Source: Candidatus Sumerlaeia bacterium (GTDB taxonomy: Bacteria; Sumerlaeota; Sumerlaeia; SLMS01; JAHLLQ01). Taken from it: a stretch of 64,000 nucleotides of DNA. A program made the position numbers and the translations under genes. The DNA lies in contig JAHCAW010000017.1 in assembly GCA_019634695.1 (NCBI GenBank), forward strand, positions 7,322 to 71,321, written 5' to 3'. Shown piece by piece: positions 9,855-59,822 of the stretch. Numbering within the stretch: position 1 is the first letter of the stretch; every line of letters begins with the position of its first letter. The notes below the pieces were generated by a model that was not told the DNA's origin, did no database searches, and was given only the letters and a program-made list of their open reading frames with translations.

Positions 9855-9911
9855 CGGTCGGGCGGATTCGACGGAGCTCTCGGTGGACCACGCCACGGGC
9901 CATCATGCAAC

Positions 9912-9943: not shown

Positions 9944-9977
9944 GCGGTGTCCTGCGGGGTGATGGGTTTCCGTCGCG

Positions 9978-18549: not shown

Positions 18550-18565
18550 CGCGAAGGACGTCGCG

Positions 18566-24605: not shown

Positions 24606-24669
24606 AAGGAGAGGGTCCACCCGACCGGAGCACTCGCAGCCCGGTTGGCCGACCAACGGACGGAACCCA

Positions 24670-27628: not shown

Positions 27629-27683
27629 GACGGCCGTCCCGGCGCGCGCGATCGCGGGCCGCGACCAAAGGAGCCCAACGCTC

Positions 27684-31382: not shown

Positions 31383-31389
31383 GACGGCG

Positions 31390-32219: not shown

Positions 32220-32235
32220 GGAACCCGCCCGGCCC

Positions 32236-42723: not shown

Positions 42724-42878
42724 GACTCCGCGGCCCGCAAGGCCCTCCGTCGGCGCACGATTCCAGCCCCCCGCGAGGCATGCCAAGCGAAAAGCCCCGC
42801 CCCACCAGAGCCGTTGACACCCGCCGCCGCGGACGACTTGCCTTGGGCAGCCGTTCGGGGTGCCCAGGAGGAAGGACC

Positions 42879-45118: not shown

Positions 45119-45555
45119 ATACGCTCTCGCTCTACTTCGCCTACGGGTCGAACATGAGCAGCGCGCAGATGGCTGCGCGTTGTCCCGGCGCCCGGCCGGA
45201 CGGCGGGGCCGAGCTGGCCGATTGGCGTTTCCTCATCAACAACCGCGGCGTCGCCACGATCGCACCGGCCCCGGGCCAGCGTGTTCTCGGTGTGCTCTGG
45301 ACGTGTACCGCCGTTCACCTGCGCGCCCTCGACGGATTCGAAGGCGTGCAGCTCGGCCTCTATCGCCGCGAGCGCGTCGCCGTCCGGCGCGTCGATGACG
45401 GCACGACAGTCGAGGCAGTCGCCTACATCGAAGACAACGTCGCGCCCGGCCCGCCGCGGGCAGGCTATCTCGAGCGCATCCTCGCCGGTGCCGCCGAGCA
45501 TGGACTCGATGCCGCCTATCGCGTCTGGCTCGAGTCTTTTGCCGACGCGGATTGA
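45115..45555 (+). CDS. gamma-glutamyl cyclotransferase-like (GGCT/AIG2 family) protein
   Basis: N-terminal YFAYGSNM motif is diagnostic of the GGCT fold. The ATG overlaps the DprE1-like stop (ATGA). Confidence 0.65.
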   Translation: MNTLSLYFAYGSNMSSAQMAARCPGARPDGGAELADWRFLINNRGVATIAPAPGQRVLGVLWTCTAVHLRALDGFEGVQLGLYRRERVAVRRVDDGTTVEAVAYIEDNVAPGPPRAGYLERILAGAAEHGLDAAYRVWLESFADAD

Positions 45556-46997
45556 GGCTCGCCCTCTTCCTTCCGCCGCAGGATAAACAACTGGTTGCGG
45601 GGTGCCTTGCGCAGATCCTCGCGCGCGGCCTCCTCCTGTGGCGTCAGGACCTCCCCGGTCGCGCACACGTCGAAGGCCGACGCGAGATGCTCGAAACCGG
45701 TCAGGCGGAACAGCCATCGCCACTGCCAGTACGTCAGCACGAAGACATGGTGCATGACGCCGTGACTGTAGTAGGACATGGCCTGCTCGACCACGTTGCA
45801 TGTGATGGGATCGACCTTGAAGTCGAAGGTGTCCGTCTCGGGATCGTAGGCGTCGGGGAAGTCGTCCGCGACGTTTCCGTCGATCGGGACCGGCAAGTTG
45901 ACGAACAGGTGGCCGCCGGGCTTGAGGATGCGGCGAACCTCGCGCAGCAGCAGGAACGGCACGATCGAGTGCTCGAGCACGTGACTCGTCAGCACCGCAT
46001 CGAAGGTTCCGGAGGCGACGGGGATCGCGTGCATCTCGGCCTCGATGGTCGTCATTCCGCGGCGCCGGCACTCCTCCAACTCGGATGGATTGCCGGAGAT
46101 CGCCGTCACGTCGAACCCGGCCGCGAGGAAGTGATGGCCGATGAAGCCGGGACCGGCGCCGATGTCGGCGAGCCGCAAACCTCTCGGCTCGGCGACGGGC
46201 ATGTTGTCGCGGAACCACTTCCACCAACCTGGCAGAGTGCCCTTGAAGTAGGCGTCGAAGTTCTCCGGGCGCATCCACTCCGGCGACTGTGGGAAGGAGG
46301 AGCGCACCGATCCGCGCTGGAAGTAGGTCTCGAGTTCCACGCGAACCAGTTCATCGGCGTCGCTGGCCGTGTCGAGCAACAGCTTGCGAATGCCGGAAGA
46401 CCTGAGAAGGTAGCGCGCGAGGCGCTGACCGCCGAGCGCGGCGAACAGGCGGCCGCGTCGCCCGCGTCGGTCCTCCTGCTGGGCCTCGATGAGTCGCGTG
46501 CGAAAGTTCGTGCTTCGAGGAAACAGGCGCATCGCCTCGGCATGAAGCGCGGCCCGCTCCCGCGCCGACAGAATGCGCGAGCTGGCGTCGCTGAGATGCT
46601 TCCAGACCTCCTCGACTCCGGAGCAGCGCCGCGCAAGGACGTGCATGGCGCGCACCGTCTCGGCCGTCGGGCCGTCGCGCAACGTGCGGATGCGCAGCAG
46701 CCAGAATCCGGGCTCGGGATTCTCGGGCTGGATTTCCTCGAGCTTGCGGTACAGGGCTTCCGCCGCTGTCAGGTCGCCGCTGCCGAGATGCAGCCACGCG
46801 AGCAGGCCGATGGCGCCGGCATCCGCCGGTTGGGCGCCGCAATGGCATTGCAGCAGCGCGATGGCCTCGGAGACGAGCCGTGCTTCCAGCGCGACGCGAG
46901 CCTGTGAGACAAGATCAGTCAACCGGACTGCTCCCTCTCCTCCGACGACGGGACGATTGTCCCGTGGCCTGGGCCTGCCTGCGGAGTCGAAGGGCAT
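45516..46997 (-). CDS. class I SAM-dependent methyltransferase with N-terminal helical (TPR-like) region
   Basis: Only the C-terminal 494 aa of the 1634-aa track ORF is real. It starts at MPFDSAGRP... (complement ATG 46995-46997). Motif I is LADIGAGPGFIGHHFLAAGFDV and the post-I region is ILKPGGHLFV. The upstream 1100 aa of the ORF is an Arg-rich shadow of the kinase gene. Confidence 0.55.
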   Translation of the reverse strand: MPFDSAGRPRPRDNRPVVGGEGAVRLTDLVSQARVALEARLVSEAIALLQCHCGAQPADAGAIGLLAWLHLGSGDLTAAEALYRKLEEIQPENPEPGFWLLRIRTLRDGPTAETVRAMHVLARRCSGVEEVWKHLSDASSRILSARERAALHAEAMRLFPRSTNFRTRLIEAQQEDRRGRRGRLFAALGGQRLARYLLRSSGIRKLLLDTASDADELVRVELETYFQRGSVRSSFPQSPEWMRPENFDAYFKGTLPGWWKWFRDNMPVAEPRGLRLADIGAGPGFIGHHFLAAGFDVTAISGNPSELEECRRRGMTTIEAEMHAIPVASGTFDAVLTSHVLEHSIVPFLLLREVRRILKPGGHLFVNLPVPIDGNVADDFPDAYDPETDTFDFKVDPITCNVVEQAMSYYSHGVMHHVFVLTYWQWRWLFRLTGFEHLASAFDVCATGEVLTPQEEAAREDLRKAPRNQLFILRRKEEGEPQSASAKDSSQTR

Positions 46998-47086: not shown

Positions 47087-50000
47087 TCAGACGCCGAGGA
47101 CCTCGCGTCGCGCCTGCTTGAGCGCCTCGACGATGTCCTCGCCCTTCTCCCAGCGGTCTTCCTTCTCTTTGGCGAGGCACTTGGCGATGATGTTCCAGAG
47201 CGCATCCGGGCAGTTCTCCGGGCGCTGGGGCTGCTGGTGCATGTGCTGGTAGGCAAGGTCGCCCTGGATGAAGGGCGGCCGGCCGGCGACGAATTCGTAG
47301 AGCATGATGCCGAAGGAATACAGGTCTGCGCGGTTGTCGACGGCGATGCCCTGCACCTGCTCGGGCGACATGTACAGCGGCGTGCCGATGACGGCGCCCA
47401 CCATCGTGCCCTCGCCCGAGTTCATCGTCGAGTCCAGCATCTTGGCGATGCCGAAGTCGGTGACCTTCACCTGGTTGGTGCTGGTCAGCATGATGTTGGC
47501 GGGCTTGATGTCGCGGTGCACGATGCCGAGCCGATGCGCGTAGCCCAGCGCGTCGGCGATGTCGATCGCGTACAGGAACAGGTCCTCCATCGACAGCTTG
47601 CCTTCGGTCTTCACGCGCTTCTTGAGGTCCGAGCCGTCGACGTACTCCATCGAGATGTACTTGCGGCCCATTTCCTCGCCGATGTCGTGGATGCGCACGA
47701 TGTTGGGGTGCGACAGGCGGCGGGCGTTGCGGGCCTCGATCTTGAAGCGGCGCACCGCCTCCGGGTTGTTCGACATGGCGTCGGGCAGGATCTTGAGGGC
47801 GACGACCTCCTCGAGCTCCTTGTCGCGGGCGCGGTAGACGATGCCCATGGCGCCGCGGCCCAGCTCGTCCAGCAGTTCGTAGCGGCGCTTGGCGTCCTCG
47901 CTCATCTGCTGAACGATGCTCGTCTTCTCGAAGGCCATCGGGTCGCTCGTCGAGCCCGACAGCATCTCGAAGCGCGTCTTTACGTCCTTGTAGTCGATAT
48001 CGGCGGCGAAGAGCTGGCGATATACGGTCTTGGCGCCCACAAGGTCCTTCTTGCCCTCGTAGCGCTGCGCCAGATCGTACAGCAACTCCTTCGTTTCCTC
48101 GTCCACCACCAGCTTCTTGAACTCCTGCAGGGCCAGGTCGAGCATGCCCTTGTTCGTGAAGCACTTGCCGAGCATCTTGATCGACTCGGCTTCCCAGCGG
48201 TAATCCTGGGCCGTCTTCTGGAAGCAGCCGATCGCGCTGTCGTATTCCTGGATCATGTAGTACAGGCGGCCGAGGCGGAAGCGCACCTCCACTTCGTCCT
48301 TCTGCGTCAGGATGCGCTCGTAGACGTCGGCGAGCGCGCGGATCACCTCGGGGCTGTTGGGCTGCAGCTTGTAGGCCTTCTCGAGCGAGGCGCGCGCCCG
48401 CGCCATGTCCCCGGTCGCGACGAGGATCCGCGCCTGGCTCTGGAGCGCCGGCAGGTACTGGCCCTCCTTCGACAGGATCTTGTCGAGCGCGCCAAGCACG
48501 TTCTGCGCGTGGTTCGGGTTGTTGCTGTAGATCCAGTCGAGCTGTTCCATCGCCTCGCGCAGGTGCCCGTAGGCCACCAGCAGCTCGCACAGGAACCAGC
48601 GCACGCGCATTGCCTCGGGGTGCTGTTGCAGCATCTGGCCGATGTGGCGCAGCAGCGTCTCCTCCGCGCCCGGGCAGGACCGCATGACGTTCTGGTAGCT
48701 TTCGACGGCCTTGACCGTGTCGTTGCGTTCGAGGTGCACGCGCGCCAGCGCCAGGTGCAACTCCGGCACGTCGCTGCGCACCTGGAGTGCCCGCTGGTAC
48801 AGGCGCGCGCACTCGTCGTCCGCGCGTCCCTTGTGCGCGTAGGCCATCGCCAGGTGGAACATGGCCTCCTGATCGTTCGGGTTGCGCTGCAGGATTGCGG
48901 TATACTCGCGCACGGCCTCGTCGAGCTTGTTGTCGTAGAGGCTGGCGAGGGCGATCAGGCGCTTGAGCTCGCCGTCGTCGGGATGGTGGCGCAGCAAGGC
49001 CTGCGCCGTGCCGAGCGCGTCCTGATAGCGGTTCGCCTTGATGTAGGACCGGACGAGCATCGCACCGATGTTGCGGTCGGCGGGATCGTTGACCAGATGT
49101 GCCTCGTAGACGGGGATGGCTTCGCCGCCCTCGTCCTCCTTGCGCTCGAGCACAGTTGCCAGCGCCTTGACGAGCTGGGCGTTGTCGGGTTCGGCGCGCA
49201 GGGCCTCGCGATAGACGCGCTCGGCCTCGGGGCGATAGACCCCGGTTGCCATGTAGGAGCGCGCGAGCTGGCGCGAGTACTGGGCCTCGCCGAAGCCGAG
49301 CTGGAACAGCGTCTCGATGACGTCGATCGCCAGGTCGTGCGTGCCCGCCAGGCGTGCCGTCTCGGCCAGCGCCTTGAGCGTCACTGCATCGTTGGGATTC
49401 GCGCGCCGCGAGCGGTGATAGATGTCGACGGCGGGCTTCGTGAAGTTGCCTGCCCGGAAGTGAATCTCCGCCAGCGTGCGTAGCAACTCGGCGTCCTCGG
49501 GCTGCAGGGCCAAGGCGCGTTGGAAGGCCTCCTGCGCGGCTTGGTCCCCGCGGCCTTCCACCAGGTAGCACTGCGCCAGGAGCTGGATCGCGCGCTCGTT
49601 GGACGGCTCGACCTGAAGCGCCGACTTCGCCTCCTCGACCGCGCGTCCCACCTCGTTCTTCTGCATGTAGATCGTGCACAGGTGGCAGTAGGCCGGCACG
49701 TAGGAGCGGTTGTACTCGAGCACGCGATGGCAGAGCGACTCGACTTCGGCGTCGCCCTTCTTGGCGTCGATGCACGAATCCAGGTAGGCTTCGAGGAAGC
49801 GCGAGTCCTCCTGGCGTCCCTGGAACTGCTGGTGATAGACGGGCAGGGCCTTTGCCGTGCGGTTGTTCGTTTCGAGATACACGTCGCACAGGGCGGCATA
49901 GACGTGGTTGGCGGTCAGTCCGGCGCGCAGGGCGGCACGCAGGCGCTTGGCCGCCTCGTCGAAGTTGCCGGCCTCCTTGTGGCACATGCCGATGGCGTAC

Positions 50001-51994
50001 TCGAGCACCTGCGGCTCGGGGAAACTCTTGAGGGCGGCCTCGAAGACCGCGCGGGCTTGGGCGTCGCGCTTCTCGCCCTGCAGCAGCGCCCGTGCGTAGC
50101 AGTGCAGCAGGTTCGGGTTCTCCGGGTCCTTCTCGTGCGTGCGCCGGTAGATGTCGATCGTGCGCGCGTCGAAGTTCTTGTTCGACATGTAGACCATCGC
50201 CAACGTCGCGACGATCTTCTGGCTGCGGGGCTTGCGCGCCAGCAGGCGCTCGTACAGCACCTCGGCCTCGTCCATGCGACCCTTGGAAACCGATGTGCGC
50301 GCGCGGCGCTCCAGATGCGCCAGATACACGAAGCGGCCAACAACATACGTCAGCAGCAGCAGGACCGCCAGCACCCCGACGCCCGCAGCGATCAGCCAGA
50401 CCAGATTTCGCCGAATCCACATCTGGCGATACTGCGACTGGTACTGGACGTTGAAGGGGTCGTAGTCCCGTAGCGTGGCCGCCGCCGCCAGCGCCTCGTC
50501 CCAGTCCTTGGCCTCACGGGCCGTATTGAACCGGTCAGCGATCTTGGCCACTTCGGCCTCGAGCCGCGCCGCGCGCTGGCTCTCGCGTTGCAAGTAGACT
50601 AGGTCCACCCGCGCGTTGCGTCGCGGCGTCGCCGCCCGTGTCATCCACGGCGACAGCCATGGAGAAAGCGATGGCCACTCCGGCGAGCGATCGACTGAAA
50701 ACGTCCGTCCCGTGTCGATACCGAACAACATCCCCTGCAATGTCATCCCGATCAGGTGGTACTTGAAGGCGTTGCGTCCGCCCTCCTGCTCCGGCACGCC
50801 GATCACCGGCATCGTGTGGCCCACGAACTGGCCGATCGAGACGACCTGCGGCTCGTCCAGCGCCGGCACTCCTTGGAACCAACTGCTTGTCTCCAGCATC
50901 CGCACCTGCGTGCCCTGCGCGAACGCCAGCACCGGGAAGCCGCCATGGTGGTTCCACAGCACGGACAACTGCGAGTTGATCCCCGCGAACGATGTCCGGT
51001 CGCCGCGCAGCATCGCGCGCCTGGACACGTCGATCGCGACCAGACCGGCCGAACCCAGACCCTGGAAGATCAGCGCCTCGCCCGGGCCGCGATCCTTCGG
51101 CATCACCAGCACCGGATCGCCCGTCACCGCCCCGCCGCCACCTGTCGCGAACCGATTCAGCACGTCCAGCCGGTCCGTCGCCGGATTGTGGGTCCGGATT
51201 TCGATGTCGCCGTTGGCCAGCGTGAAGACGAGTTCGTCGCGCCCGTTGCCGGTAAGGTCCGCCAGCAACACCGTTGTGGCGATGCCGTGTTGCTCGGAGA
51301 TATTGTATTGGGTGGCACGGCCGGTGAACGACTCGATCAGCAGAAGCTTGCCGTCGCTGGTCGGCACCGCGATGTCGATCTGTCCGGAGATTCTCGGCGA
51401 GCCCAGCGAGAGCGGAGCGGCGGCCTTCGAGCCGGTGCGCACCGGCTCCCAGTAGGACTTCGCCTGCCGTGCGTCGTCCAGATAGACCGAGATCACCTGT
51501 CCGCCCTGATCGGCCAGCACCACGATCTCGGTGAAGGTGCCCGGGCTGCCCGGCAACGGCAGGTAGACCACCGTCGGCGATTCGACGAACGAGTTTGTCG
51601 AGACCTGTGCCTCGGCGATCGGAGTAAGGTTTCCGCCGTTGAGGAAGACGACACGGCCGTCCTCGGTGCCGAAGGCGATGTCGAGCGACGAGTCACGGGC
51701 GAAGTCGCCCACCACCGGGGCCGTCAGCGACCGGCGCGCCTCGTCCACCGCCTGCAGGATCATCTCACCCGACGTCGCGTCGAACACCGCGATGCGGCCC
51801 CCGACGTCCGTCGCGATGATCTCGGGCACCTCGTTGCGCACCAGATTGGCGGCGATAACCGCGTTGGGGGTATCCAGCGGCGTCTTGCGTCGCGTGAAGG
51901 TCTCACGCGGCTCGTCCGCCCATGCGCCGAACCCTCCCGCAACGAGCCCCGCCGCCAGCAGACTCGCGCCTCGCCGAACCTGTATGCCCATCAC
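47087..51994 (-). CDS. giant transmembrane Ser/Thr protein kinase (~1635 aa): signal peptide, extracellular FG-GAP/VCBS-like beta-propeller region, one TM, ~800 aa of TPR repeats and a C-terminal Hanks kinase domain
   Basis: N-terminal signal MMGIQVRRGASLLAAGLVAGGFGAWA. Repeats such as TDVGGRIAVFD and LADLTGNGRDELVF are FG-GAP-like. TM is LVWLIAAGVGVLAVLLLLTYVV. Many TPR-like helices follow. The kinase motifs at the C-terminus are GRGAMGIVYRA, VALK, HRDIKPANIML, DFGIAK and SPEQ. Confidence 0.8.
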   Translation of the reverse strand: MMGIQVRRGASLLAAGLVAGGFGAWADEPRETFTRRKTPLDTPNAVIAANLVRNEVPEIIATDVGGRIAVFDATSGEMILQAVDEARRSLTAPVVGDFARDSSLDIAFGTEDGRVVFLNGGNLTPIAEAQVSTNSFVESPTVVYLPLPGSPGTFTEIVVLADQGGQVISVYLDDARQAKSYWEPVRTGSKAAAPLSLGSPRISGQIDIAVPTSDGKLLLIESFTGRATQYNISEQHGIATTVLLADLTGNGRDELVFTLANGDIEIRTHNPATDRLDVLNRFATGGGGAVTGDPVLVMPKDRGPGEALIFQGLGSAGLVAIDVSRRAMLRGDRTSFAGINSQLSVLWNHHGGFPVLAFAQGTQVRMLETSSWFQGVPALDEPQVVSIGQFVGHTMPVIGVPEQEGGRNAFKYHLIGMTLQGMLFGIDTGRTFSVDRSPEWPSLSPWLSPWMTRAATPRRNARVDLVYLQRESQRAARLEAEVAKIADRFNTAREAKDWDEALAAAATLRDYDPFNVQYQSQYRQMWIRRNLVWLIAAGVGVLAVLLLLTYVVGRFVYLAHLERRARTSVSKGRMDEAEVLYERLLARKPRSQKIVATLAMVYMSNKNFDARTIDIYRRTHEKDPENPNLLHCYARALLQGEKRDAQARAVFEAALKSFPEPQVLEYAIGMCHKEAGNFDEAAKRLRAALRAGLTANHVYAALCDVYLETNNRTAKALPVYHQQFQGRQEDSRFLEAYLDSCIDAKKGDAEVESLCHRVLEYNRSYVPAYCHLCTIYMQKNEVGRAVEEAKSALQVEPSNERAIQLLAQCYLVEGRGDQAAQEAFQRALALQPEDAELLRTLAEIHFRAGNFTKPAVDIYHRSRRANPNDAVTLKALAETARLAGTHDLAIDVIETLFQLGFGEAQYSRQLARSYMATGVYRPEAERVYREALRAEPDNAQLVKALATVLERKEDEGGEAIPVYEAHLVNDPADRNIGAMLVRSYIKANRYQDALGTAQALLRHHPDDGELKRLIALASLYDNKLDEAVREYTAILQRNPNDQEAMFHLAMAYAHKGRADDECARLYQRALQVRSDVPELHLALARVHLERNDTVKAVESYQNVMRSCPGAEETLLRHIGQMLQQHPEAMRVRWFLCELLVAYGHLREAMEQLDWIYSNNPNHAQNVLGALDKILSKEGQYLPALQSQARILVATGDMARARASLEKAYKLQPNSPEVIRALADVYERILTQKDEVEVRFRLGRLYYMIQEYDSAIGCFQKTAQDYRWEAESIKMLGKCFTNKGMLDLALQEFKKLVVDEETKELLYDLAQRYEGKKDLVGAKTVYRQLFAADIDYKDVKTRFEMLSGSTSDPMAFEKTSIVQQMSEDAKRRYELLDELGRGAMGIVYRARDKELEEVVALKILPDAMSNNPEAVRRFKIEARNARRLSHPNIVRIHDIGEEMGRKYISMEYVDGSDLKKRVKTEGKLSMEDLFLYAIDIADALGYAHRLGIVHRDIKPANIMLTSTNQVKVTDFGIAKMLDSTMNSGEGTMVGAVIGTPLYMSPEQVQGIAVDNRADLYSFGIMLYEFVAGRPPFIQGDLAYQHMHQQPQRPENCPDALWNIIAKCLAKEKEDRWEKGEDIVEALKQARREVLGV

Positions 51995-52198
51995 CGCCTC
52001 AGTACCCCGTTTCGAAGGCTTCCCTGGCCCAAATGCCCCGCCGCGCCCGACGAATGACCACTTCTCGGGATTGGCCGACGGCCCCGGGGGGCCTCGCCGT
52101 GAAAGGCACGTCCAGCCTCGGGATTCCGGACCCTGTGCTCAACCGGATTAATGCCCTTCGGCACACCGGCAACCGCGTCCCTCCCGACGGCGCCGCCC

Positions 52199-53842
52199 CT
52201 ACAGGGAGCGACCGAACAGGCGCCACGTGCCCTGCGCTCCCAATCGGTCGTACCGAACCGCCCCCCACAGCACCCCGACCCGCCGCTCGTCCGGCCGCTC
52301 AGGCCCCGTCCAGTCCTCCCACGACACCAGTCCCAGATTCAACCGACGACGCTCGACGCCCAGCCAATTCCGCTCCCGCCGCCACATCGGCCCCGCCACC
52401 ACGACGGTCTCGTGCTTGCGACCCGCCGTCACCTCGCGCGACCACAGCGTCCACAATGGCGCCCAGTTGCGGTCCACCGACTCGGCCTCGGTGTAGGGGA
52501 ACAGATGCGGCGCGCTCTGGTAGCTGCTGCCGTCCTCGCGATGGATTTCCCGCCAGAGGGGGAAGATCATCCGGCGGTGGCTCTCGCGCCCGTCCTGCCA
52601 TTGGTTGGTCTGGCGCGCGTAGAAGGGCAGCACATAGCGGCGGTCGAACACCAGGTCCGGGTCCGTCGTGCGTCGCCAGACGTGGAAAGGCCACGGAGCC
52701 AGCAGGTGCTCGGTGCGTCCGTTGCTGCGTCGCACGTAGAAGGGGAAGACGCCGCCGCCCTCCATGGCCCGCCGACGCGGCTGGCCCTCGGCATCGGCGA
52801 AGGCCGGGTCCACCGGAATCCGGCTGGTCCACCGCCCGATGAACCACAGCACACGGTGCTCGCGCACCCCGGTGCGCAGGTTGTCGTCCTGATTGTACAG
52901 CGCCAGTGCCCAGCCCCGCGTCCGGCGACCCGCCATGTCCAGTCGCCCGTAGAACGGGAACACCATGTCGAAGCGCACTTCGGGCGAGCGCACCCGTCCC
53001 CACAGCGGGATGAAGGCGTTGACCTCGCGACGTTCGTCGCCTTGGCCCTCGACCCGGTAGTGACCCAGTGGCCACAGCCAGTACGCGCGCTTCAGCTCAC
53101 CCGGGCGCTCGACGTAGGCCACCAGCGGCCAGGCGCGGAAGCCCCACAAGCCCCCACCGCCGGAGATCCAGGACAGGAAAGGCCAGGGTACCGAAGTCTG
53201 CACCAGGCGCTCGTCACCCTCGCCGCGCGTCGAGCGCACGAACAACGGCCAGGCGGCGAACTCGATCCGGTCGCGATTCCAGAAGCCGCGGAAGTCGCCC
53301 CAGAAAGGCCACAGGGCGCGGATGTTCTGGGGTCGGCGCGGGAAGATGGGGAACGCCAGCTTCGCATCATTGGCCCGCCAGTAGAATGGAAACAGGATCA
53401 GATAGTCGCCGCCCGACTCGCGATGCCCCTGCCAGTAGAAGGGGAACAGGTAGCGCGTGGCCGTCTGCTGGCCCTCCTTGCGCCCCTGCGTCGAATACCA
53501 CAGCGCGAAGAGTTCCGACGTCGTGCGGTTCTCCCAGCCGGGCGTGCGCTCGCGGTGCGACCAGGTCCACAGAGGCCATAACACGTCGACCTGACGCTCG
53601 CCCGCTTCGGGACGTTCGACACGCGAGTAGAACGGATGGATGGCCAGCAGCGATTCGTCGGGCGCCTGGCGCCAGCGCACGAAGGGCCACAGCACCCAGC
53701 CCTGGCGATTCGCGTCGTCGTCCTCGCGTGTCGGCGTGGCCACCTCGGCGCCCGGCGCAAGCGCGCAAGCCAGCAGGACAAGCAGCACCAGCGCCGCCTG
53801 TGCACCCATGCGCCCCCGCAAGCCGGTCGTCGTCTCAGACAT
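52199..53842 (-). CDS. secreted tandem-repeat protein with ~23 aromatic 'WPF/PFY(W)xR' repeats (unknown family)
   Basis: 547 aa with a signal peptide (GAQAALVLLVLLACALAPGA). Recurring ~20-25-aa units are centred on VLWPFVRW, IHPFYSRV, VLWPLWTW, LFPFYWQG, LFPFYWRA, LWPFWGDF, AWPLFVRS, VPWPFLSW, VFPFYGRL, VFPFYVRR, APWPFHVW, VLPFYARQ, IFPLWREI. The start overlaps the upstream HK stop by 8 nt. Confidence 0.6.
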   Translation of the reverse strand: MSETTTGLRGRMGAQAALVLLVLLACALAPGAEVATPTREDDDANRQGWVLWPFVRWRQAPDESLLAIHPFYSRVERPEAGERQVDVLWPLWTWSHRERTPGWENRTTSELFALWYSTQGRKEGQQTATRYLFPFYWQGHRESGGDYLILFPFYWRANDAKLAFPIFPRRPQNIRALWPFWGDFRGFWNRDRIEFAAWPLFVRSTRGEGDERLVQTSVPWPFLSWISGGGGLWGFRAWPLVAYVERPGELKRAYWLWPLGHYRVEGQGDERREVNAFIPLWGRVRSPEVRFDMVFPFYGRLDMAGRRTRGWALALYNQDDNLRTGVREHRVLWFIGRWTSRIPVDPAFADAEGQPRRRAMEGGGVFPFYVRRSNGRTEHLLAPWPFHVWRRTTDPDLVFDRRYVLPFYARQTNQWQDGRESHRRMIFPLWREIHREDGSSYQSAPHLFPYTEAESVDRNWAPLWTLWSREVTAGRKHETVVVAGPMWRRERNWLGVERRRLNLGLVSWEDWTGPERPDERRVGVLWGAVRYDRLGAQGTWRLFGRSL

Positions 53843-55592
53843 CCTTGTTGACGGTCGCGTTCGTGTCCTGGCCGAGGACCAGCTCGTCCTCGTCCGACAG
53901 CGCGGGCAGCTTGATGATGAATGTGGTCCCGACGTTCTCTTCCGACTCGACCGTCAGGGCGCCGCGCATGTCCTCGATCACCTTGCGGCACATCGGCAGG
54001 CCGAGTCCGGTGCCGGACGAGCCCTTGGTGGTGAAGAAAGGGAGGAAGATCTTGTCGAGCTTCTCGCGCGGGATGCCCGCGCCGTTATCGGCCACCTTGA
54101 TGATGAGGCTGCGCTGCGCGTCATCGGCCACGCTCGTGACGATCTCGATGTGGCCCTGGCCGTGTGGGATCGCCTCGATGGCGTTGACGATCAGGTTGGC
54201 GAGCGTGCGTTGCAGGCCGATCTCGTCGGTCCAGCGCTCCCCGATGCCCTCCTCAAGATCGAGCTCGAGCGTGATGCCCTTGCGTACCAGCTCGCTCTCG
54301 ATCTCCTCGGCGGTCGAGCAGATCAGCGCGTTGATGTCGATCATCCGGATGCGCGGGCGCTTCTGGCTCGAGTACTCGAGCATGTCCTTGACCAGCTTGC
54401 TGATCTTCTCGATGCCGCGGCTGACAACGCCCCAGGACTCTTTAGCGGTCTCGACCTTGTTGGCCGCGAAGGCGCGCTCGAGCAACTCGCTGCCGCCGTT
54501 CATCAGCAGCAGGATGTTCTTGATGTTGTGACTGATGCCGGCCACCGTCTCGCCGACTGCGGCCAGGCGCTCGCGGTGCGTCGCCTCGCGCCGCATCCGG
54601 ATGTTCTCGAGCGCCAGCGACAGGTCGCCCGCGATCATCGTCACGAACTCCAGGTCGTCCTTGTCCAGCGTCTTGCCGATCGACTGCGTGTCCAGATGAA
54701 CGACGCCCATCACGCGCTCGCCCTGAATCATCGGCACGCAGATAACCGACTGCATCTTGTTCATGATGATCGATTCGCTGGCGCCGAATCGGTCGTCCGA
54801 GCCGGTGTCGGTGCTCAGCACCGCACACCGGTCGCGCACCACCTGGTCCAGGATCGTCTTCGACAGCGAGATGCGCGTGCCCGGAATAATCTCGTCCTGC
54901 GTGCGCACGGCCGCGATTTCCAGTTCCGTCGAGGCCGGCGAGAACCGCGTCAGGATCACGCCACGATCCGCCGCCACCGCGTCGAACAGGATGTCGAGCA
55001 CGCGCTCGATAATCGTCTGCTCCCGGTCGCCCTCGGCCTCGCGCAGCAGTTCCGACAGCCGGTACATCGCCGTCAGACGGTTGTGCGACTTCACCAACTC
55101 GCTCGGATCGAGCGCCCGAGCCTCCTTCACCGAGATCGGTGCCGTGAAGAACGAGGACCGTTCCCGGATTGCCTCGATCTGGTCGCTGCCGATCACCGAC
55201 TGCGTCTGCGGCCGCGGCGCATCCGTGTCGTCCTTGAACTCCACGATGCTCATTCCGCCGACCTCGAAGTTCGAGGAGGAGCGCCCCGCCGTCGCCTCGT
55301 TGCGGAACGTGAACTCGATCGCCCCGAACGTCACCTCGTCGCTGTGGTGCAGCGTCATCTGCGTGACGCGCTCGCCGTTGACGTACGTCCCGTTCGAGGA
55401 ATTCAAGTCCTGCAGGATGAAGAAATTGCCGCGCTTGTCGATGCGCGCATGGAACCGCGACACCGAGTCCGTCCCCAGCACCACGCTGTTCGACGGGTGC
55501 CGGCCGACCGTCGTCGTGTCCGTCAGCTCGTACTCCGGCTTCAGCCCGGGCGTCGGCGTGCGCAGCGTCAGCTTCGGCTTCTGGTCGGCCAT
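53835..55592 (-). CDS. sensor histidine kinase with N-terminal FHA domain and central GAF domain (FHA-GAF-HisKA-HATPase_c), no TM
   Basis: ATG at complement 55590-55592 (MADQKPKLTL...). FHA core is TVGRHPSNSVVLGTDSVSRFHARI...LNSSNGTYVNGERV. H-box is AGISHNIKNILLL. The ATPase G-boxes are VADNGAGIP and GSSGTGLGLPMC. Confidence 0.75.
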   Translation of the reverse strand: MADQKPKLTLRTPTPGLKPEYELTDTTTVGRHPSNSVVLGTDSVSRFHARIDKRGNFFILQDLNSSNGTYVNGERVTQMTLHHSDEVTFGAIEFTFRNEATAGRSSSNFEVGGMSIVEFKDDTDAPRPQTQSVIGSDQIEAIRERSSFFTAPISVKEARALDPSELVKSHNRLTAMYRLSELLREAEGDREQTIIERVLDILFDAVAADRGVILTRFSPASTELEIAAVRTQDEIIPGTRISLSKTILDQVVRDRCAVLSTDTGSDDRFGASESIIMNKMQSVICVPMIQGERVMGVVHLDTQSIGKTLDKDDLEFVTMIAGDLSLALENIRMRREATHRERLAAVGETVAGISHNIKNILLLMNGGSELLERAFAANKVETAKESWGVVSRGIEKISKLVKDMLEYSSQKRPRIRMIDINALICSTAEEIESELVRKGITLELDLEEGIGERWTDEIGLQRTLANLIVNAIEAIPHGQGHIEIVTSVADDAQRSLIIKVADNGAGIPREKLDKIFLPFFTTKGSSGTGLGLPMCRKVIEDMRGALTVESEENVGTTFIIKLPALSDEDELVLGQDTNATVNKDV

Positions 55593-55650: not shown

Positions 55651-56028
55651 CTAGTCCAGCGCAAACTCCGGCTCGGGCCGGAACCGCTGAGCCACCAGGT
55701 CGAAGTGCACCCGGCGCGTGTCCCGGACTGGAAACGGCATCATCTCCATCAACAGATCCGGCCCCATCCACAGATACGGTGGCGCCTTGAAGCGCTCCCG
55801 CCGCACGGCCGGCTCGTGCCCCGCAAGATCAGCCTTGAAATCATAGTACCAATACCACGTGAACGGCATCTCCACCGGCGTGCGACCCAGATGAATGTCG
55901 TTCATGTGGATATCCGCACCCGGTGGGTCCGACGTCACCACCACCTTGCTGCGCACGCAGCCCGTCGCCCCCAACGCCATCAGCGCCGTCGCCATCACCG
56001 CGCAACACCAGCGTTTCCAGACCGCCAT
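55651..56028 (-). CDS. PEGA-domain lipoprotein
   Basis: Lipobox MATALMALGATGC. This is followed by VVVTSDPPGADIHMNDIHLGRTPVEMPF, matching the PEGA pattern (PxGAxVxxDG...G.TP). Confidence 0.5.
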   Translation of the reverse strand: MAVWKRWCCAVMATALMALGATGCVRSKVVVTSDPPGADIHMNDIHLGRTPVEMPFTWYWYYDFKADLAGHEPAVRRERFKAPPYLWMGPDLLMEMMPFPVRDTRRVHFDLVAQRFRPEPEFALD

Positions 56029-56125: not shown

Positions 56126-57067
56126 TCAGGCTGGCGCCTCCGATATCCGGCCCAGTCGTGGCGGCTCGATCCAGTCATAGCTCGACGGGTTCCGCTCCCA
56201 CGCCTTGCGATGCAGGTCGCACTGGTGCCAGAACGCCCACGCGCCAGTCACCGGGTGGCGCGGCGCCACCGCCTCGCCCAGCGCCTCGCTCGCCGCCTGC
56301 GACAACGCCGGCAGCAGCGAGGAATCGAACGCATCACCCAAACCTCGATGCACCAGGTTCGCGATCAGGATACAGGTGTCCGTAATCCCGGAACGCTCGC
56401 CCACGCCGTTCACCGACGTCGACACGAAGTCCGCTCCGCCGTCGAGAGCCGCCAGCGCATTCGCCGTCGCCAGACCCCGGTCATTGTGCAGATGCGCCTC
56501 GAGCGGCACGCCGGGGAACCGCTGCCGCAGCTCGGCGAAGAGTTCCCGCGCCTGATCGGGCTCGAGCACCCCCAGCGTGTCAGGGCAGCACAGACGGTCG
56601 GCTCCCGCCTCGATGGCGACCTCGCAGGCGCGCCACAGGTCGGCCGGCTCGGTGCGAGTCGCATCCTCGACACTGTACCGAACAGTCAAGCCCGCCTGCT
56701 TGGCGGCCATGATTGATTCCCGGGCCATCGCCAGCAGGTCCTCCCGGCCGCAGCCCGGCGTTCGCGCCTCGATGGTCTGCCGGTTCACGCCCAGGAAGAT
56801 CCCGACCCCGTCGGCTCCCGAGGCGATCGCTGCCCGAATGTCGGCCTCCCGGGCCCGGGCATGCGTCATCACCTTCGCCTGACGGCGCGCTGCGAGCACG
56901 GCCGCCAGAATCTCGTCCCAATCCGGCCGAGCCCCGGCGTGCGTGCACTCGATATGTCGGATGCCGACGGCCTCCAGCAGCGGCACCAACGCCGCCGCAG
57001 CCTCCGGCCGCACCGCCACCCGGCACGCCTGCAAACCCTCCCGCAATGTGGCGTCAATCAGGTGCAA
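56126..57067 (-). CDS. HMGL-like (DRE-TIM metallolyase / pyruvate carboxyltransferase) enzyme, homocitrate/citramalate-synthase-like catalytic domain only
   Basis: TTG start with GGGGAGG SD. The N-terminal IDATLREGLQ corresponds to the DxTLRDGxQ motif. The EAHLHNDRGLATANALAALDGGADFVSTSVNGVGERSGI region carries the second HxH metal site. At 313 aa it lacks the C-terminal regulatory domain of IPMS. Confidence 0.6.
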   Translation of the reverse strand: MHLIDATLREGLQACRVAVRPEAAAALVPLLEAVGIRHIECTHAGARPDWDEILAAVLAARRQAKVMTHARAREADIRAAIASGADGVGIFLGVNRQTIEARTPGCGREDLLAMARESIMAAKQAGLTVRYSVEDATRTEPADLWRACEVAIEAGADRLCCPDTLGVLEPDQARELFAELRQRFPGVPLEAHLHNDRGLATANALAALDGGADFVSTSVNGVGERSGITDTCILIANLVHRGLGDAFDSSLLPALSQAASEALGEAVAPRHPVTGAWAFWHQCDLHRKAWERNPSSYDWIEPPRLGRISEAPA

Positions 57068-57158: not shown

Positions 57159-59822
57159 ATGCCATTTGCTGGGACAACCTCGTTGCGCGCCTTGCTTCCC
57201 AACCTGATCGAGTCGATTGCCGCCTCTGCCGAGTGTTCCGTGCCGTATACGACGATCTGGGACCGCTTCCTGACGGTGGCGCGTCATGCCCCGAGTCGCG
57301 TGGCCGTTTCTTGGGAAGAGGGAGAGATCACATGGGGGGCGCTGGCATCCCGGGCTACTGGCGTCGCGACCTGCCTGGCCGATGTCGGCATCGGGCATGG
57401 CGACGTGGTCGCGTTCCTGCTTCCGCCCGACGCCGATCACTTTGCCTGCTTCCTCGGCATTCTTCAGCGCGGCGCGATCCTGCTCTCCCTGGACGCGGCC
57501 AGCCCGCCCGATCGCCTGCGGCGCGTGCTCGAGCACAGTGGCGCCGCGGCCGTCTTCGTCAACGCCGCAACCCGCTCCCGGATTGAGTCCTTGGGCCTGC
57601 CGGTTCTGCGCCAGATCGCTGTCGAATCCGTGGTGCCCTGCCCGGTCGAGAACCTGCCGCCCAGCCCCGCCGCCTCCGACAGCGTCGCCAGCTTGCTCTA
57701 CACCTCCGGCTCGACGGGCGAGCCCAAGGGCGTCATGCAGCTCCACCGCAACCACCTGCGCATCTCGCACCAGTACCGGACGATCCACGCCATCACGCCC
57801 GAGGACCGCGTGGCGCTCGCGCTGCCTCCCTCGGGTGCCAGCGCCCGCACGGACATCCACGCGGCTCTGATGTGCGGCGGCATCCTGGCCTGCCGCCATC
57901 TCGCCCGCCACGGGGCCGCCGGCTTGGGCGAGTGGGTGGACGATCAGGCAATCACCATCCTCCATTTGGTGCCGACGCTCTACCGCGCCATGGTCCGTGC
58001 GCTGCCGCCCGACAGGGTGCTTTCCAGTGTACGCGTCGTGCGCCTGGGCGGCGAGGCCCTGCGCCAGCAGGACCTCGAGACCTTCGCCCGCCACTTCCCG
58101 CCCGACGCCGTCCTGTCTTGGTCGCTCAGCACCACCGAGGCTTCCTTCGCCACCATGATGCACTGGCGCGCGGGCGATCCGCCACCCGGCGATCCCCTGC
58201 CCTCCGGCTTTCCGATGCCCGACCCCGGAATCATCATCGTCGACGAGCAGGGCACTGAGCTGCCCGCCGGCACCACCGGACGCATCGTTCAGCGCGGCAC
58301 CGTCCTCTCGCCCGGCTACTGGCACGCCCCGGAAACGACGGCCAAGTTCTTCAGTGACGACCCGGTCGGTGGCGGAGTCCGGCGCTTCTTCACCGGTGAC
58401 CTTGGACACATCGACGCCCAGGGCCGGCTCGTTCACGAGGGGCGCCTCGACTATCACGTCAAGATCGCGGGCAATCGCATCGACCCGGCCGAGGTCGAGG
58501 AAGCGATCTGTCGCCATCCCGACGTCGATGAGGGCGTCGTCATCCCGCGCACCCCGGCCACCGGCGACTCCTGGCTGCACGCCTTTGTCACCGTCCGCGG
58601 GACGGTGACCACTGCCCAGTTGAAAGCCCATGTCGCCGGCCTGCTGCCCGCCCACCTCGTGCCGGCCCGCATCGAGTTCCTCGACCGCATGCCGCTGACC
58701 GCCACCGGCAAGGTGGACCGCGCCGGCCTGCGCAAACGCTCCGAGGCACCGGAAGCCGCTGCACCCGAACGCCCGGCCGACCACTTCGAACTCGGCCTGC
58801 GCGACGTCTGGCGGGAGATTTTGCGCCAGCCCGAACTTGGCATCGACGCAGGCTTCTTCGAGCACGGTGGCTCCTCGCTCGACGCCGTCACGGCCCTCGA
58901 GGAGGTGCGTCGCCGCTTCGGCGCCGAGATCGAACCGCAAGCCCTGCTTGAGAGCCCCACCCCGCGCGAGCTGGCCGCCCACCTGCGCGGCGCCGCCCCC
59001 CGACGCTGGCGTCATCTCATGGGCGTCTCGACCACCGGCGACGGACTCCCCTTCTACTGCGTGCCTCCCAACGGGCGGACGGCCTACTCCTTCGAGCCGC
59101 TCGGTCGCCTCATGGCCGGCGAGCGGCCGCTCTATACCTTCCATCCGCTCGGTGCCCTGCCGGGCGAGACCCCGCACCGGACCATCGCCGAGATGGCCGC
59201 CGCCTACGTGCGCGAGCTGCTGGACCATCGCCCCGAGGGGCCCTTCCTGCTGGGCGGGCGCTGCGGCGGTGGCATGGTCGCCTGGGAGATGGCCCGGCAG
59301 CTCACCGCCGCGGGCCACGAGGTTCCGGTGGTCGTTCTGCTCGAGACCAAGCGGGCGCCCTATCCGGCCGACCGCCTGCTGCGCCTGCGCTACGCGACGG
59401 CCGTCGTGGCCGGCCTTCCGTTCGCCCCGCGCGCCGGCGAGGCCAGCCGATGGTTTGTGCACCGGATGCTGGCCCGTCTGCGGGCGCCCGGCCACCCGGC
59501 CGCCCGCGAACCCGAGAACGACGATGCGCCGTCCGTCTTTCCCAGCGAGCGCGAGCGCGCCATGCTGCAAGCCCACAACCGCGCCTGTTTGCACTATCGC
59601 GTCGCCCCGGCGGCGACCCGTCTGGCGCTCGTGCTCGCCGAGGCCGGCAATGCCTTCATCGACCACCAGCGCGCCGTGCTCTGGCGCCTGCTTGCCCGAC
59701 GCGGCACGGAGTTCCACGTCCTGCCGGGCGACCACCTCCAAACGCTGGCCGGCGACAATCTGGTCCGCGCGGCCGGTGTGGTCTTAGACATCTGCCGCCG
59801 CGCCGAGCAGTCGGCAGGGTAG
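57159..59822 (+). CDS. stand-alone single-module NRPS-like protein: adenylation - peptidyl carrier - thioesterase (A-PCP-TE). The TE nucleophile position is occupied by Cys.
   Basis: A-domain cores are LYTSGSTGEPKGV (A3), FTGDLGHIDAQGRL (A7), GRLDYHVKIAGNRIDPAEVEEAI (A8) and PLTATGKVDR (A10). PCP motif is FFEHGGSSLDAV. The TE region has GGRCGGGMVAWE (a GxCxG in place of GxSxG) and a downstream PGDH. AGGTGAG SD is 5 nt upstream of the ATG. Confidence 0.8.
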   Translation: MPFAGTTSLRALLPNLIESIAASAECSVPYTTIWDRFLTVARHAPSRVAVSWEEGEITWGALASRATGVATCLADVGIGHGDVVAFLLPPDADHFACFLGILQRGAILLSLDAASPPDRLRRVLEHSGAAAVFVNAATRSRIESLGLPVLRQIAVESVVPCPVENLPPSPAASDSVASLLYTSGSTGEPKGVMQLHRNHLRISHQYRTIHAITPEDRVALALPPSGASARTDIHAALMCGGILACRHLARHGAAGLGEWVDDQAITILHLVPTLYRAMVRALPPDRVLSSVRVVRLGGEALRQQDLETFARHFPPDAVLSWSLSTTEASFATMMHWRAGDPPPGDPLPSGFPMPDPGIIIVDEQGTELPAGTTGRIVQRGTVLSPGYWHAPETTAKFFSDDPVGGGVRRFFTGDLGHIDAQGRLVHEGRLDYHVKIAGNRIDPAEVEEAICRHPDVDEGVVIPRTPATGDSWLHAFVTVRGTVTTAQLKAHVAGLLPAHLVPARIEFLDRMPLTATGKVDRAGLRKRSEAPEAAAPERPADHFELGLRDVWREILRQPELGIDAGFFEHGGSSLDAVTALEEVRRRFGAEIEPQALLESPTPRELAAHLRGAAPRRWRHLMGVSTTGDGLPFYCVPPNGRTAYSFEPLGRLMAGERPLYTFHPLGALPGETPHRTIAEMAAAYVRELLDHRPEGPFLLGGRCGGGMVAWEMARQLTAAGHEVPVVVLLETKRAPYPADRLLRLRYATAVVAGLPFAPRAGEASRWFVHRMLARLRAPGHPAAREPENDDAPSVFPSERERAMLQAHNRACLHYRVAPAATRLALVLAEAGNAFIDHQRAVLWRLLARRGTEFHVLPGDHLQTLAGDNLVRAAGVVLDICRRAEQSAG

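Follow-up and report, generated by a model that had tools for sequence, protein, structure and literature searches.

Four-gene cluster of Candidatus Sumerlaeota encoding a soluble FHA-GAF histidine kinase together with a membrane Ser/Thr kinase

Genes and domains at the locus

The studied stretch of DNA (64 kb, further referred to as the window) belongs to Candidatus Sumerlaeota, an uncultured phylum in which the cassette of a histidine kinase (HK) is conserved. Four genes lie there on one strand (−): a gene for a PEGA-like lipoprotein, the HK gene, a gene for a 547-aa all-beta protein, and the gene for a membrane Ser/Thr kinase (STK), with a methyltransferase gene downstream of the latter. 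The coordinates of the genes and of their domains are given in Table 1.

Table 1. Features of the locus, in the order of transcription (bit scores are followed by the profile cut-offs where available)
Feature	Position	Strand	Evidence
PEGA-like lipoprotein, 125 aa, first cassette gene	55651..56028	−	GC3 0.83; PEGA (PF08308) 22.4 bits vs 20.8
HK, soluble FHA-GAF-HisKA-HATPase_c, 585 aa	53835..55592	−	Pfam; no TM segment
FHA domain, residues 27–90	55323..55514	−	Pfam (PF00498) 74.1 bits vs 20.7
GAF domain, residues 192–329	54606..55019	−	GAF_2 (PF13185) 42.4 bits vs 28.6; GAF (PF01590) 41.6 vs 22.4 (residues 192–328)
HisKA/DHp, residues 347–410, H-box S-H355-N-I-K-N-I-L	54363..54554	−	HisKA 28.2 to 30.8 bits
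Codon of the phospho-acceptor H355	54528..54530	−	
HATPase_c catalytic domain, residues 455–564	53901..54230	−	93.4 bits vs 26.4
Secreted all-beta repeat protein, 547 aa, third cassette gene	52199..53842	−	GC3 0.87
Spacer between the 547-aa gene and STK, 204 nt	51995..52198	−	
STK, membrane Ser/Thr kinase, 1635 aa	47087..51994	−	Pfam
Periplasmic BamB/PQQ-like beta-propeller, residues ~30–435	50690..51907	−	AF2 pLDDT 81.7; Foldseek
Single TM helix, residues 527–561	50312..50416	−	Kyte-Doolittle 19-residue mean 2.68; basic stretch after the helix
Cytoplasmic TPR array, residues 565–1270, ~700 aa	48185..50302	−	TPR_19 171.5 bits, TPR_14, TPR_16, others
Hanks-type kinase domain, C-terminal, residues 1372–1616	47147..47881	−	Pkinase (PF00069) 183 bits vs 31.7
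Class I SAM methyltransferase, N-terminus helical and TPR-like	45516..46997	−	GC3 coding signal; Methyltransf_11 58.8 bits

The sequence-only reading of this DNA had described the HK as a protein with FHA and GAF domains and without a membrane or periplasmic sensor. This description is confirmed: all the domains, the FHA domain included, score above the Pfam cut-offs, and the HK is considered soluble, since it has no hydrophobic segment (the maximum Kyte-Doolittle 19-residue mean is 1.17). The DHp region is matched by HisKA alone, at 28.2 bits in the whole protein and 30.8 bits when isolated (the cut-off is 26.9). At least 120 full-length homologues were found, nearly all of them named Sumerlaeota/BRC1; the homologues bear the database name “NtrC family sensor kinase”.

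The same reading was correct in placing on the strand of the HK a 1635-aa membrane STK with a long TPR array. The catalytic motifs of this kinase are complete (GRGAMG, VALK, HRDIKPAN, DFG, SPE), and four threonines, T1349 and T1358 just upstream of the kinase domain and T1530 and T1538 in the activation segment, are conserved in 73–97% of 33 orthologues. Its N-terminal domain had been called FG-GAP-like. This label holds only approximately. The domain is modelled as a beta-propeller, but FG-GAP_3 scores 24.3 bits, below its cut-off of 26.9, an FG-GAP propeller (PF13517/PF01839) was therefore rejected, and the fold is nearest to the BamB/PQQ-type propellers, the best Foldseek matches being eight-bladed BamB (E ~1e-14, target TM 0.67–0.74). 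Clustering at 50% identity divides the STK family, which is colinear over ~1600 aa, into ~30 groups; one member carries the name Candidatus Sumerlaeota.

The two exported cassette proteins and the methyltransferase are absent from the earlier description. The PEGA match of the lipoprotein spans just 30 of 71 profile positions, and the label “PEGA-like” is therefore safer. The window protein and all eight orthologues inspected share the lipobox and the residues following it, G-C-[VI]-R-S-[KR]. The 547-aa protein matches no Pfam or NCBIfam family, and none of its 144 homologues has a Pfam domain. Sec-type signal peptides are found across the family. The AF2 model (pLDDT 92.7) consists of ~50 short strands, and its matches in PDB are only weak (TM < 0.2).

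The distance of 1.8 kb between the HK and the STK had been given correctly, but this stretch is occupied by the 547-aa gene, the start of which overlaps the stop of the HK gene by 8 nt. Among the compared loci, the junctions of the cassette are short (at most 91 nt between the lipoprotein and HK genes, at most 24 nt between the HK and 547-aa family genes), whereas the gap before the STK gene is always 169–259 nt (201 nt in locus L082, 259 nt in L170, 169 nt in L172). Given this gap, the STK gene may be transcribed separately. The 204-nt spacer of the window, the sequence of which is conserved with the closest relative only, yielded no terminator-like, sigma-70-like or sigma-54-like site.

The statement that the window encodes no response regulator holds as well. 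No REC profile match was observed in the six-frame ORFs of the 64-kb window. Pfam scans of the likely window genes that were tested yielded no receiver; for a few short GC3-positive ORFs the REC profile was the only scan. Nor is a response regulator encoded adjacently in L082–L087 or L168–L172. Hanks kinases, FHA domains and HKs other than those described here are also absent from the window, and there is no phosphatase near the HK and STK genes. The methyltransferase has no counterpart downstream of the STK gene in L082, L170 and L172 and is probably outside the signalling module.

Phosphothreonine input and gene order among relatives

The residues of the phosphothreonine pocket of the FHA domain (G30, R31, S45, R46, H48 and N67) are invariant in 116 homologues, and so are S65 and G68; over the segments G30-R31, S45-R46-x-H48 and S65-S66-N67-G68 as a whole, conservation is complete or nearly so. 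The nearest solved FHA structures are those of the STK-docking domains of GarA, OdhI, EmbR and Rv1747. In an alignment with GarA the pocket coincides residue by residue: the beta3-beta4 loop contributes Gly-Arg, beta4-beta5 Ser-x-x-His, and beta6-beta7 Asn. Because the pocket is invariant, input from a Ser/Thr kinase to the HK via the FHA domain would be expected, and the neighbouring STK is the best candidate for the source of the phosphothreonine. Further, the HK has no transmembrane segment and would therefore need a partner for signals from the envelope; the STK is the sole membrane-spanning signalling protein in the cluster.

We suggest, with a probability of about 0.4, that the four co-oriented genes encode one envelope-to-cytoplasm signalling module in this Sumerlaeota lineage. 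In such a module, the STK would sense something periplasmic, possibly the two exported cassette proteins, and would autophosphorylate on conserved threonines (T1349 and T1358, which precede the kinase domain, and T1530 of the activation loop). The FHA domain of the HK would dock on these phosphothreonines, as GarA, EmbR and Rv1747 dock on mycobacterial kinases. Docking would draw the soluble HK to the membrane and the TPR scaffold, and the Ser/Thr-rich linker of the HK might be phosphorylated too. The balance of kinase and phosphatase activities of the HK would then shift toward a response regulator encoded elsewhere, and the GAF domain would add a further input from the cytoplasm. Where the genes are not adjacent, the role of the STK would probably be filled by an orthologous kinase encoded at another locus.

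The relay from the STK to the HK proposed in the sequence-only reading is supported in part: the pocket is invariant and the gene order recurs, but an STK gene occupies that position in only some genomes. The order lipoprotein–HK–547-aa protein–STK is observed in four genomes, the window and loci L082, L170 and L172, where the HK is 78%, 57% and 56% identical to that of the window, respectively; the identity of the STK N-terminus and TPR region falls to 42% among these loci. Because their flanks are unrelated and they fall into two separate HK subclades, the adjacency of the HK and STK genes appears to be more than accidental. In contrast, the two genes are not adjacent in four other cassette loci and three distant ones. 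In the former (L083, L084, L088 and L169) the cassette lipoprotein–HK–550-aa protein has a different gene at the STK position, and the STK gene was found neither there nor within the fetched flanks. In the latter (L085–L087) there is no STK gene at this position either, and both neighbours of the HK gene, or all but the lipoprotein gene, are absent.

The lipoprotein gene lies directly upstream of the HK gene in L082–L085, L088, L168–L170 and L172; in L085 and L168 this pair is still present. A gene of the 547-aa family follows the HK gene within 24 nt in L082–L084, L169, L170 and L172; in L088 the distance from the HK match to it is ~80 nt. The genes kept together in Sumerlaeota are those of the lipoprotein, the HK and the secreted protein. 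Since loci without the STK can retain the cassette, the HK has its stable partners in the two envelope proteins, and the STK is its lineage-restricted neighbour. Among ~75 more distant FHA-GAF loci, a Hanks kinase is encoded in the fetched DNA of only seven. In the long FHA-GAF loci of these seven it is 7–9 kb away, in three of them on the opposite strand; in L091 and L099, for which no HK core is shown, it is encoded ~1 kb downstream on the same strand.

This distribution makes it quite conceivable that the three-gene cassette alone is the functional unit, the FHA ligand being a phosphoprotein generated by another Ser/Thr kinase or a different substrate altogether, and that the STK is a mere neighbour in part of the phylum, with its own substrates recruited by the TPR scaffold. 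Besides the cassettes and pairs retained without the STK, such an arrangement is favoured by the independent conservation of the STK family (in L171 an STK orthologue has no cassette within 10 kb and has enolase downstream, as in L170), by the long spacer that always precedes the STK gene, and by an FHA-Pkinase fusion protein encoded 9 kb away in L172, which indicates that other proteins of Thr-phosphorylation signalling exist in these genomes. However, persistence of the four-gene order in two HK subclades amid reshuffled surroundings is not expected of an unrelated neighbour, and a soluble HK would still need a membrane partner linking it to the two exported proteins.

The FHA domain might also act in cis or across the HK dimer, in the manner of the GarA/OdhI switch or of Chk2 dimerization: a Ser/Thr kinase, the neighbour or another one, would phosphorylate the HK linker (residues 100–170), and the FHA domain would bind this site and open or close the kinase core. 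The FHA domain is indeed most similar to those of GarA and OdhI, which bind their own phosphorylated N-terminal threonine, and the linker contains two semi-conserved Ser/Thr motifs, [ST]-x-[ST]-[VIF]-[LI] at residues 130–134 and K-S-S-[VF]-[IF] at residues 145–149, the latter with Ser/Thr in 82–91% of the sequences. But the best-conserved positions are mostly Ser (Thr in only 13–28%), no Thr is invariant across the HK family, and FHA domains strongly prefer phosphothreonine; we consider this mode of action unlikely.

H-box and catalytic residues of the histidine kinase

H355 and N359 (position H+4) of the HK are invariant (116/116 for N359). Residues N466, D502, G506, P518 and G527/G529/G531 are also invariant in the 116 homologues, and G504 and F516 nearly so, that is, the N, G1, F and G2 boxes of HATPase_c are invariant or nearly invariant. 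Position H+1 is different. It is occupied by N in 113 of the 116 homologues and by S in the other three, and in distant relatives from the wider FHA-GAF-HK family by H, Y, C or G, never by E or D. No acidic residue is present beside the phospho-acceptor histidine in the whole HK family.

In the HisKA kinases tested so far for this, an acidic residue (E or D) at H+1 is needed for autokinase activity; replacement of E by A, D, G or Q at this position abolishes the kinase activity and leaves the phosphatase activity intact, and N or T at H+4 is required for the latter (PMC3510030). Given the non-acidic H+1, the classical relay output of the HK is therefore not assured. The HK might be a phosphatase-biased or non-canonical HisKA protein that, when recruited by phosphothreonine, dephosphorylates or sequesters a response regulator, not an autophosphorylating relay kinase; the residues at H+1 and H+4 and the exclusive match of its DHp region to HisKA, where H+1 mutants behave in this way, agree with such a role. 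Yet the histidine and the ATP-binding motifs inspected, which are invariant or nearly invariant, suggest selection for ATP use and His phosphorylation. Moreover, in DHp families other than HisKA (HisKA_2, HWE) autophosphorylation proceeds with a non-acidic H+1, and this alternative appears improbable.

A broader and highly speculative generalization would be that FHA-GAF-HKs make up a HisKA subfamily, widespread and so far undescribed, whose H-box S-H-[N/H/Y]-I-K-N-I-L has lost the catalytic acidic residue. Its members would be intrinsically poor autokinases and competent phosphatases, activated or targeted only by FHA docking on phosphothreonine, and in Sumerlaeota they would act on the cytoplasmic side of a trans-envelope sensor that has four parts and reports the state of the outer envelope. 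If so, the sensor would consist of the lipoprotein, the secreted beta-hairpin-repeat protein (a fold without a solved relative), the Ser/Thr kinase with the BamB-like propeller, and the HK.

Comparison with known systems

FHA-bearing HKs and pairs of STK and FHA genes are already known, and a kinase-to-kinase relay at this locus, which is plausible, would be one more form of such established cross-talk. In NCBIfam, the DHp-CA core is matched best by AtoS (178 bits) and ZraS (134 bits). Both values fall well short of the equivalog cut-offs (646 and 479, respectively). The H-box is SHNIKNIL in the HK and HE[IV][KR]NPL in the AtoS/ZraS/NtrB-type kinases, and neither a sigma-54 activator nor a sigma-54 promoter was found near the HK gene. 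BamB, the best structural match of the periplasmic domain of the STK, is an eight-bladed propeller lipoprotein of the BAM complex. The STK propeller is only 12–15% identical to it and is fused via the TM helix to the TPRs and the kinase; as judged from the model, the likeness is one of fold.

EspA from Myxococcus xanthus, like the HK, is a soluble histidine kinase with an N-terminal FHA domain and with activity tied to Hanks-type kinases. As a hybrid kinase, EspA additionally contains PAS domains and a receiver; its FHA domain was reportedly described by Stein et al. in 2006 and Higgs et al. in 2008. PktA5 and another Ser/Thr kinase (printed as PktA8) act together with EspB, in a complex that may interact with EspA (PMC4320627). 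The HK differs from EspA in having a GAF domain and no receiver, and it comes from a different phylum and has a partner kinase of different architecture. The second kinase partner of PktA5 is said to be PktB8 in the original paper. The NCBIfam EspA model matches the HK in two stretches; orthology to EspA or EspC (NF052573/NF052574) was rejected, the scores being 129 bits against the cut-off of 1400 and 124 against 1200.

In the mycobacterial pairs PknF-Rv1747, PknH-EmbR and PknB/PknG-GarA, an FHA effector is encoded next to a membrane Hanks kinase or is its target, and docks on the phosphothreonines of this kinase; PknF and Rv1747 are encoded in one operon (PMC3138270). Compared with these pairs, the HK and STK genes have another gene between them and do not stay adjacent throughout the phylum, and the FHA effector is a histidine kinase instead of an ABC transporter, a transcription factor or a metabolic regulator. 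The PpkA-Fha1-PppA threonine phosphorylation pathway of type VI secretion in Pseudomonas aeruginosa works with envelope accessory proteins. There, an FHA protein is phosphorylated by a membrane Hanks kinase whose sensor domain is periplasmic (PpkA and Fha1 are listed in PMC6213207). Neither type VI secretion genes nor a PP2C phosphatase were found at the Sumerlaeota locus, and its FHA protein, unlike Fha1, is a two-component signalling enzyme.

Gene map of the locus

The G+C content of the window is 65–71%, so most of its long ORFs are shadows; real genes were told from shadow ORFs by the G+C content of third codon positions (GC3). The genes encoding the histidine kinase (HK) and the membrane Ser/Thr kinase (STK) belong to a row of minus-strand genes, upstream of which an IF-2 gene lies on the opposite strand. 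The sequence-only reading placed an interval of about 1.8 kb between HK and STK. This interval is filled by a real gene encoding a 547-aa protein, which that reading did not mention; likewise unmentioned was the gene of a PEGA-like lipoprotein upstream of HK. Further, the lipoprotein, HK and 547-aa protein genes are referred to as the cassette. It is preceded by the HMG-CoA-lyase-like gene, from which the NRPS-like gene diverges. The methyltransferase gene is buried in a long shadow ORF; its product combines a class I SAM methyltransferase domain with a TPR-like, helical N-terminal part. No Rfam family was found in the region. The window contains no second Hanks kinase, FHA domain or HK and no receiver domain, in agreement with the initial remark that it encodes no cognate response regulator.

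Elsewhere in the window, the respiratory cluster begins with multihaem cytochrome c7/c3-like, molybdopterin-oxidoreductase/4Fe-4S and NrfD-like genes resembling alternative complex III. Next come a cbb3-type cytochrome c domain and then COX1, a UbiA-family prenyltransferase (probably haem O synthase), CtaG and COX3. The β-helix protein and two Wzy_C proteins make this neighborhood rich in envelope and polysaccharide genes.

Features of the window and of the related loci (L handles: retrieved loci of HK or STK relatives or of metagenome FHA-GAF genes)
Locus	Feature	Coordinates	Strand	Remarks
Window	2369-aa protein with right-handed β-helix repeats	9978..17087	−	
Window	Respiratory gene cluster	17728..33132	+	
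Window	Wzy_C (O-antigen-ligase-like) protein	37554..39125		
Window	Wzy_C (O-antigen-ligase-like) protein	39466..42786		
Window	SAM-dependent methyltransferase, 493 aa	45516..46997	−	Directly downstream of STK; recognized from GC3 profile
Window	Shadow ORF, 1634 aa	45516..50420		Contains the methyltransferase gene
Window	STK, 1635 aa	47087..51994	−	
Window	Periplasmic domain of STK	50690..51907	−	
Window	547-aa protein without family	52199..53842	−	
Window	FHA-GAF histidine kinase	53835..55592	−	
Window	H-box codons of HK	54519..54533	−	
Window	PEGA-like protein, 125 aa	55651..56028	−	
Window	HMG-CoA-lyase-like gene	56126..57067	−	Upstream end of minus-strand row
Window	NRPS-like A-T-TE protein (adenylation, carrier, thioesterase)	57159..59822	+	Stand-alone; upstream of cassette
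L091	FHA-GAF gene without detectable HK core	1638..4150		
L099	FHA-GAF gene without detectable HK core	8411..11082		
L168	Two-gene insertion	2762..4545		AAA_21 ATPase and DUF4276 protein
L170	Enolase	10212..11504		Cassette adjacent to STK
L171	Enolase	17188..18501		Cassette not adjacent to STK
L172	Protein with FHA and Pkinase domains	1..1222	−	9 kb upstream of four-gene cluster

The two kinases and the exported proteins

All HK domains named in the sequence-only reading were confirmed by Pfam: FHA (74.1 bits), GAF (41.6 bits), HisKA (28.2 bits, narrowly above the cut-off of 26.9) and HATPase_c (93.4 bits). No hydrophobic segment is present, in agreement with the proposed lack of a membrane sensor. 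At least 120 full-length homologues share the identical four-domain architecture at 38–78% identity, and nearly all of the named ones come from Candidatus Sumerlaeota/BRC1. Alignment of 116 homologues shows no variation in the phosphothreonine-pocket residues of the FHA domain, the phospho-acceptor His, the N box or the G2 glycines; the G1 and F boxes vary little or not at all. The catalytic core is nearest to AtoS and ZraS, scoring far under their NCBIfam cut-offs. Among solved structures, the FHA domain is nearest to GarA, OdhI, EmbR and Rv1747, which each dock on Ser/Thr kinases of mycobacteria. Judging from its sequence, HK is expected to receive a threonine-phosphorylation input, and the neighboring STK could be the source.

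The H-box of HK reads S-H-N-I-K-N-I-L, with N356 and N359 in positions H+1 and H+4 relative to the phospho-acceptor H355. The comparison of H-boxes took in the window and the loci L082–L089 and L095–L162. Position H+1 is occupied by Asn in 113 of the 116 homologues and by Ser in the other three; in the wider metagenome FHA-GAF-HK family, His, Tyr, Cys or Gly takes this place (SH[H/Y/C/G]IKNIL). Glu or Asp never occurs there, either in the 116 Sumerlaeota HKs or in the wider family. The H+4 Asn is invariant in the HK family, the ATP-binding motifs are retained (invariant or nearly so), and HisKA is the sole Pfam match of the DHp region. Willett and Kirby demonstrated for HisKA kinases that replacement of the acidic H+1 residue leads to the loss of autokinase activity with phosphatase activity kept, the assayed variants being CrdS E372A/D/G/Q and HK853 E261A; they also cited NtrB E140A/Q for this residue (PMC3510030). 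Thr or Asn at H+4 is required for the phosphatase activity of HisKA kinases (PMC3510030). The HK family, devoid of the acidic residue, may have a phosphatase bias, use another catalytic base or require an activator, and autophosphorylation of HK becomes a specific, testable biochemical question.

STK has a C-terminal Hanks kinase domain (183 bits) following about 700 residues of TPRs, and a single transmembrane helix at 527–561 with an exported N-terminal domain. The label "FG-GAP-like" proposed for the latter fits only loosely, FG-GAP_3 being sub-threshold. The AlphaFold model built with eight orthologues (pLDDT 81.7) is a β-propeller; among solved structures it matches the eight-bladed propeller of BamB best, and we call the domain BamB/PQQ-like. 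Between the propeller and the transmembrane helix lie a disordered stretch and then a short, TPR-like helical region. The fusion of a kinase to a modeled BamB-like propeller hints at sensing of β-rich envelope proteins. The catalytic motifs are complete. Conserved threonines immediately precede the kinase domain (T1349, 73%; T1358, 85%) or belong to the activation segment (T1530, 85%; T1538, 97%). The family is colinear (~1600 aa) and comprises ~30 clusters at 50% identity, with 24–42% identity to the window STK; one member is named Candidatus Sumerlaeota. Given the family matches of HK and STK in Candidatus Sumerlaeota, both are conserved proteins of the phylum.

Both other products of the cassette are exported. 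The lipobox and the next residues of the 125-aa protein are conserved in the window and in all eight orthologues inspected. This lipoprotein was ruled out as the FHA ligand because, being exported, it has no cytoplasmic segment. The 547-aa protein bears a Sec signal peptide and has no Pfam or NCBIfam matches; its 144 homologues include remote ones from Kiritimatiellia, Lentisphaerae, Planctomycetota and Myxococcota. AlphaFold models it with confidence (pLDDT 92.7) as all-β, with ~50 short strands and W/F/P-rich motifs. Foldseek search of PDB yielded only weak, unconvincing matches (teneurin YD shells, OspA; TM <0.2). The secreted partner is thus a confidently predicted all-β repeat protein without a family or a convincing structural relative.

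Gene neighborhoods in related genomes

We compared the neighborhoods of eleven HK orthologues and one STK orthologue, as well as 80 metagenome loci retrieved by the FHA-GAF pattern, searching all loci with the proteins of the window. The picture for co-occurrence of HK and STK is mixed: the genes are adjacent in some loci, and STK is absent from others. The order lipoprotein–HK–550-aa protein (the counterpart of the 547-aa one)–STK is found in the window, L082 (HK 78% identical), L170 (57%) and L172 (56%). Only these four genes are common to the window and L082, and the flanks of L170 and L172 differ again; the methyltransferase is not kept beside STK in any of the three. On the neighbor-joining tree of HKs, the four STK-adjacent proteins split into two subclades, and an STK-less locus is placed between these, which suggests an old arrangement broken several times.

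The first three genes are retained in L083, L084, L088 and L169, where another gene stands next instead of STK. In L168, whose contig ends after the split cassette, the insertion between the HK and 550-aa protein genes looks like a small mobile or defense-type island. L085 retains the lipoprotein only, and L086 and L087 neither neighbor. In L171, the locus of the STK orthologue, the cassette is absent within 10 kb. Enolase follows the STK orthologue at a distance of a few genes both there and in L170, suggesting that STK has a conserved neighborhood of its own.

The HK and 550-aa protein genes overlap or are at most 24 nt apart in annotated loci, and the lipoprotein–HK gap does not exceed 91 nt, whereas STK is separated by 169–259 nt in every four-gene locus. 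Spacing and retention together show that the cassette is a stable unit with STK as a recurrent but dispensable neighbor. The spacer before STK is conserved with the closest relative only, and no σ70-like or terminator-like site was found in it. A σ54 promoter, which could indicate an NtrC-type output, was not found before either STK or the cassette, matches being fewer than in shuffled sequence.

Any Hanks kinase was found in seven of ~75 more distant FHA-GAF loci, at 7–9 kb in the long ones. In L091 and L099 about 1 kb separates the FHA-GAF gene from a Hanks kinase domain downstream in the same orientation; this may be another way to pair FHA-GAF modules with Ser/Thr kinases. The FHA-Pkinase protein of L172 demonstrates that other phosphothreonine-signaling proteins occur in these bacteria.

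Possible coupling of the kinases and known systems

We tentatively suggest, with a probability of about 0.4, that the four genes form one module in this lineage. In it, the FHA domain would bring HK to the autophosphorylated threonines of STK, and the output of HK would thereby shift to a response regulator not linked to these genes. The strongest indirect argument for STK is that a soluble kinase whose operon also encodes two exported proteins requires a partner spanning the membrane. The main rival, a possible though less favored explanation, is that the cassette alone is the functional unit and phosphothreonine comes from elsewhere; its stability speaks for this, as does the absence of STK from several loci. 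Two further alternatives are partly compatible variants. A GarA-like intramolecular switch on the linker of HK itself is unlikely; the conserved hydroxyl residues of the linker, mostly Ser and less often Thr, speak against it. A phosphatase-only role, improbable still, agrees with the family-wide H-box features, but all ATP-binding motifs are conserved.

The stable unit of a lipoprotein, HK and a secreted protein points to an envelope-related function. If the link between HK and STK is real, a soluble HK would be driven by a eukaryote-like receptor kinase instead of its own sensor domain, and Sumerlaeota would offer a clear and genetically compact case of Hanks/two-component cross-wiring. These bacteria are known almost only from metagenomes. 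Their histidine kinases received passing mentions only in the literature searched.

EspA is an FHA-bearing histidine kinase linked with PktA5 and PktB8. In M. xanthus, the complex of the Hanks kinase PktA5 with another Ser/Thr kinase and EspB possibly contacts EspA (PMC4320627). HK does not qualify as an orthologue of EspA, scoring 129 bits versus the NCBIfam cut-off of 1400. An STK gene adjoins that of an FHA-bearing effector in PknF–Rv1747 (PMC3138270), and PpkA–Fha1 is another known pair of an STK and an FHA effector (PMC6213207). EspA with PktA5/PktB8 and the mycobacterial STK/FHA pairs have already established the principle of cross-wiring, so that the link would come as no great surprise to specialists. 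What goes beyond the known systems is the envelope-linked three-gene unit, together with the two most noteworthy points, the H-box without an acidic residue and the secreted partner with an orphan fold.
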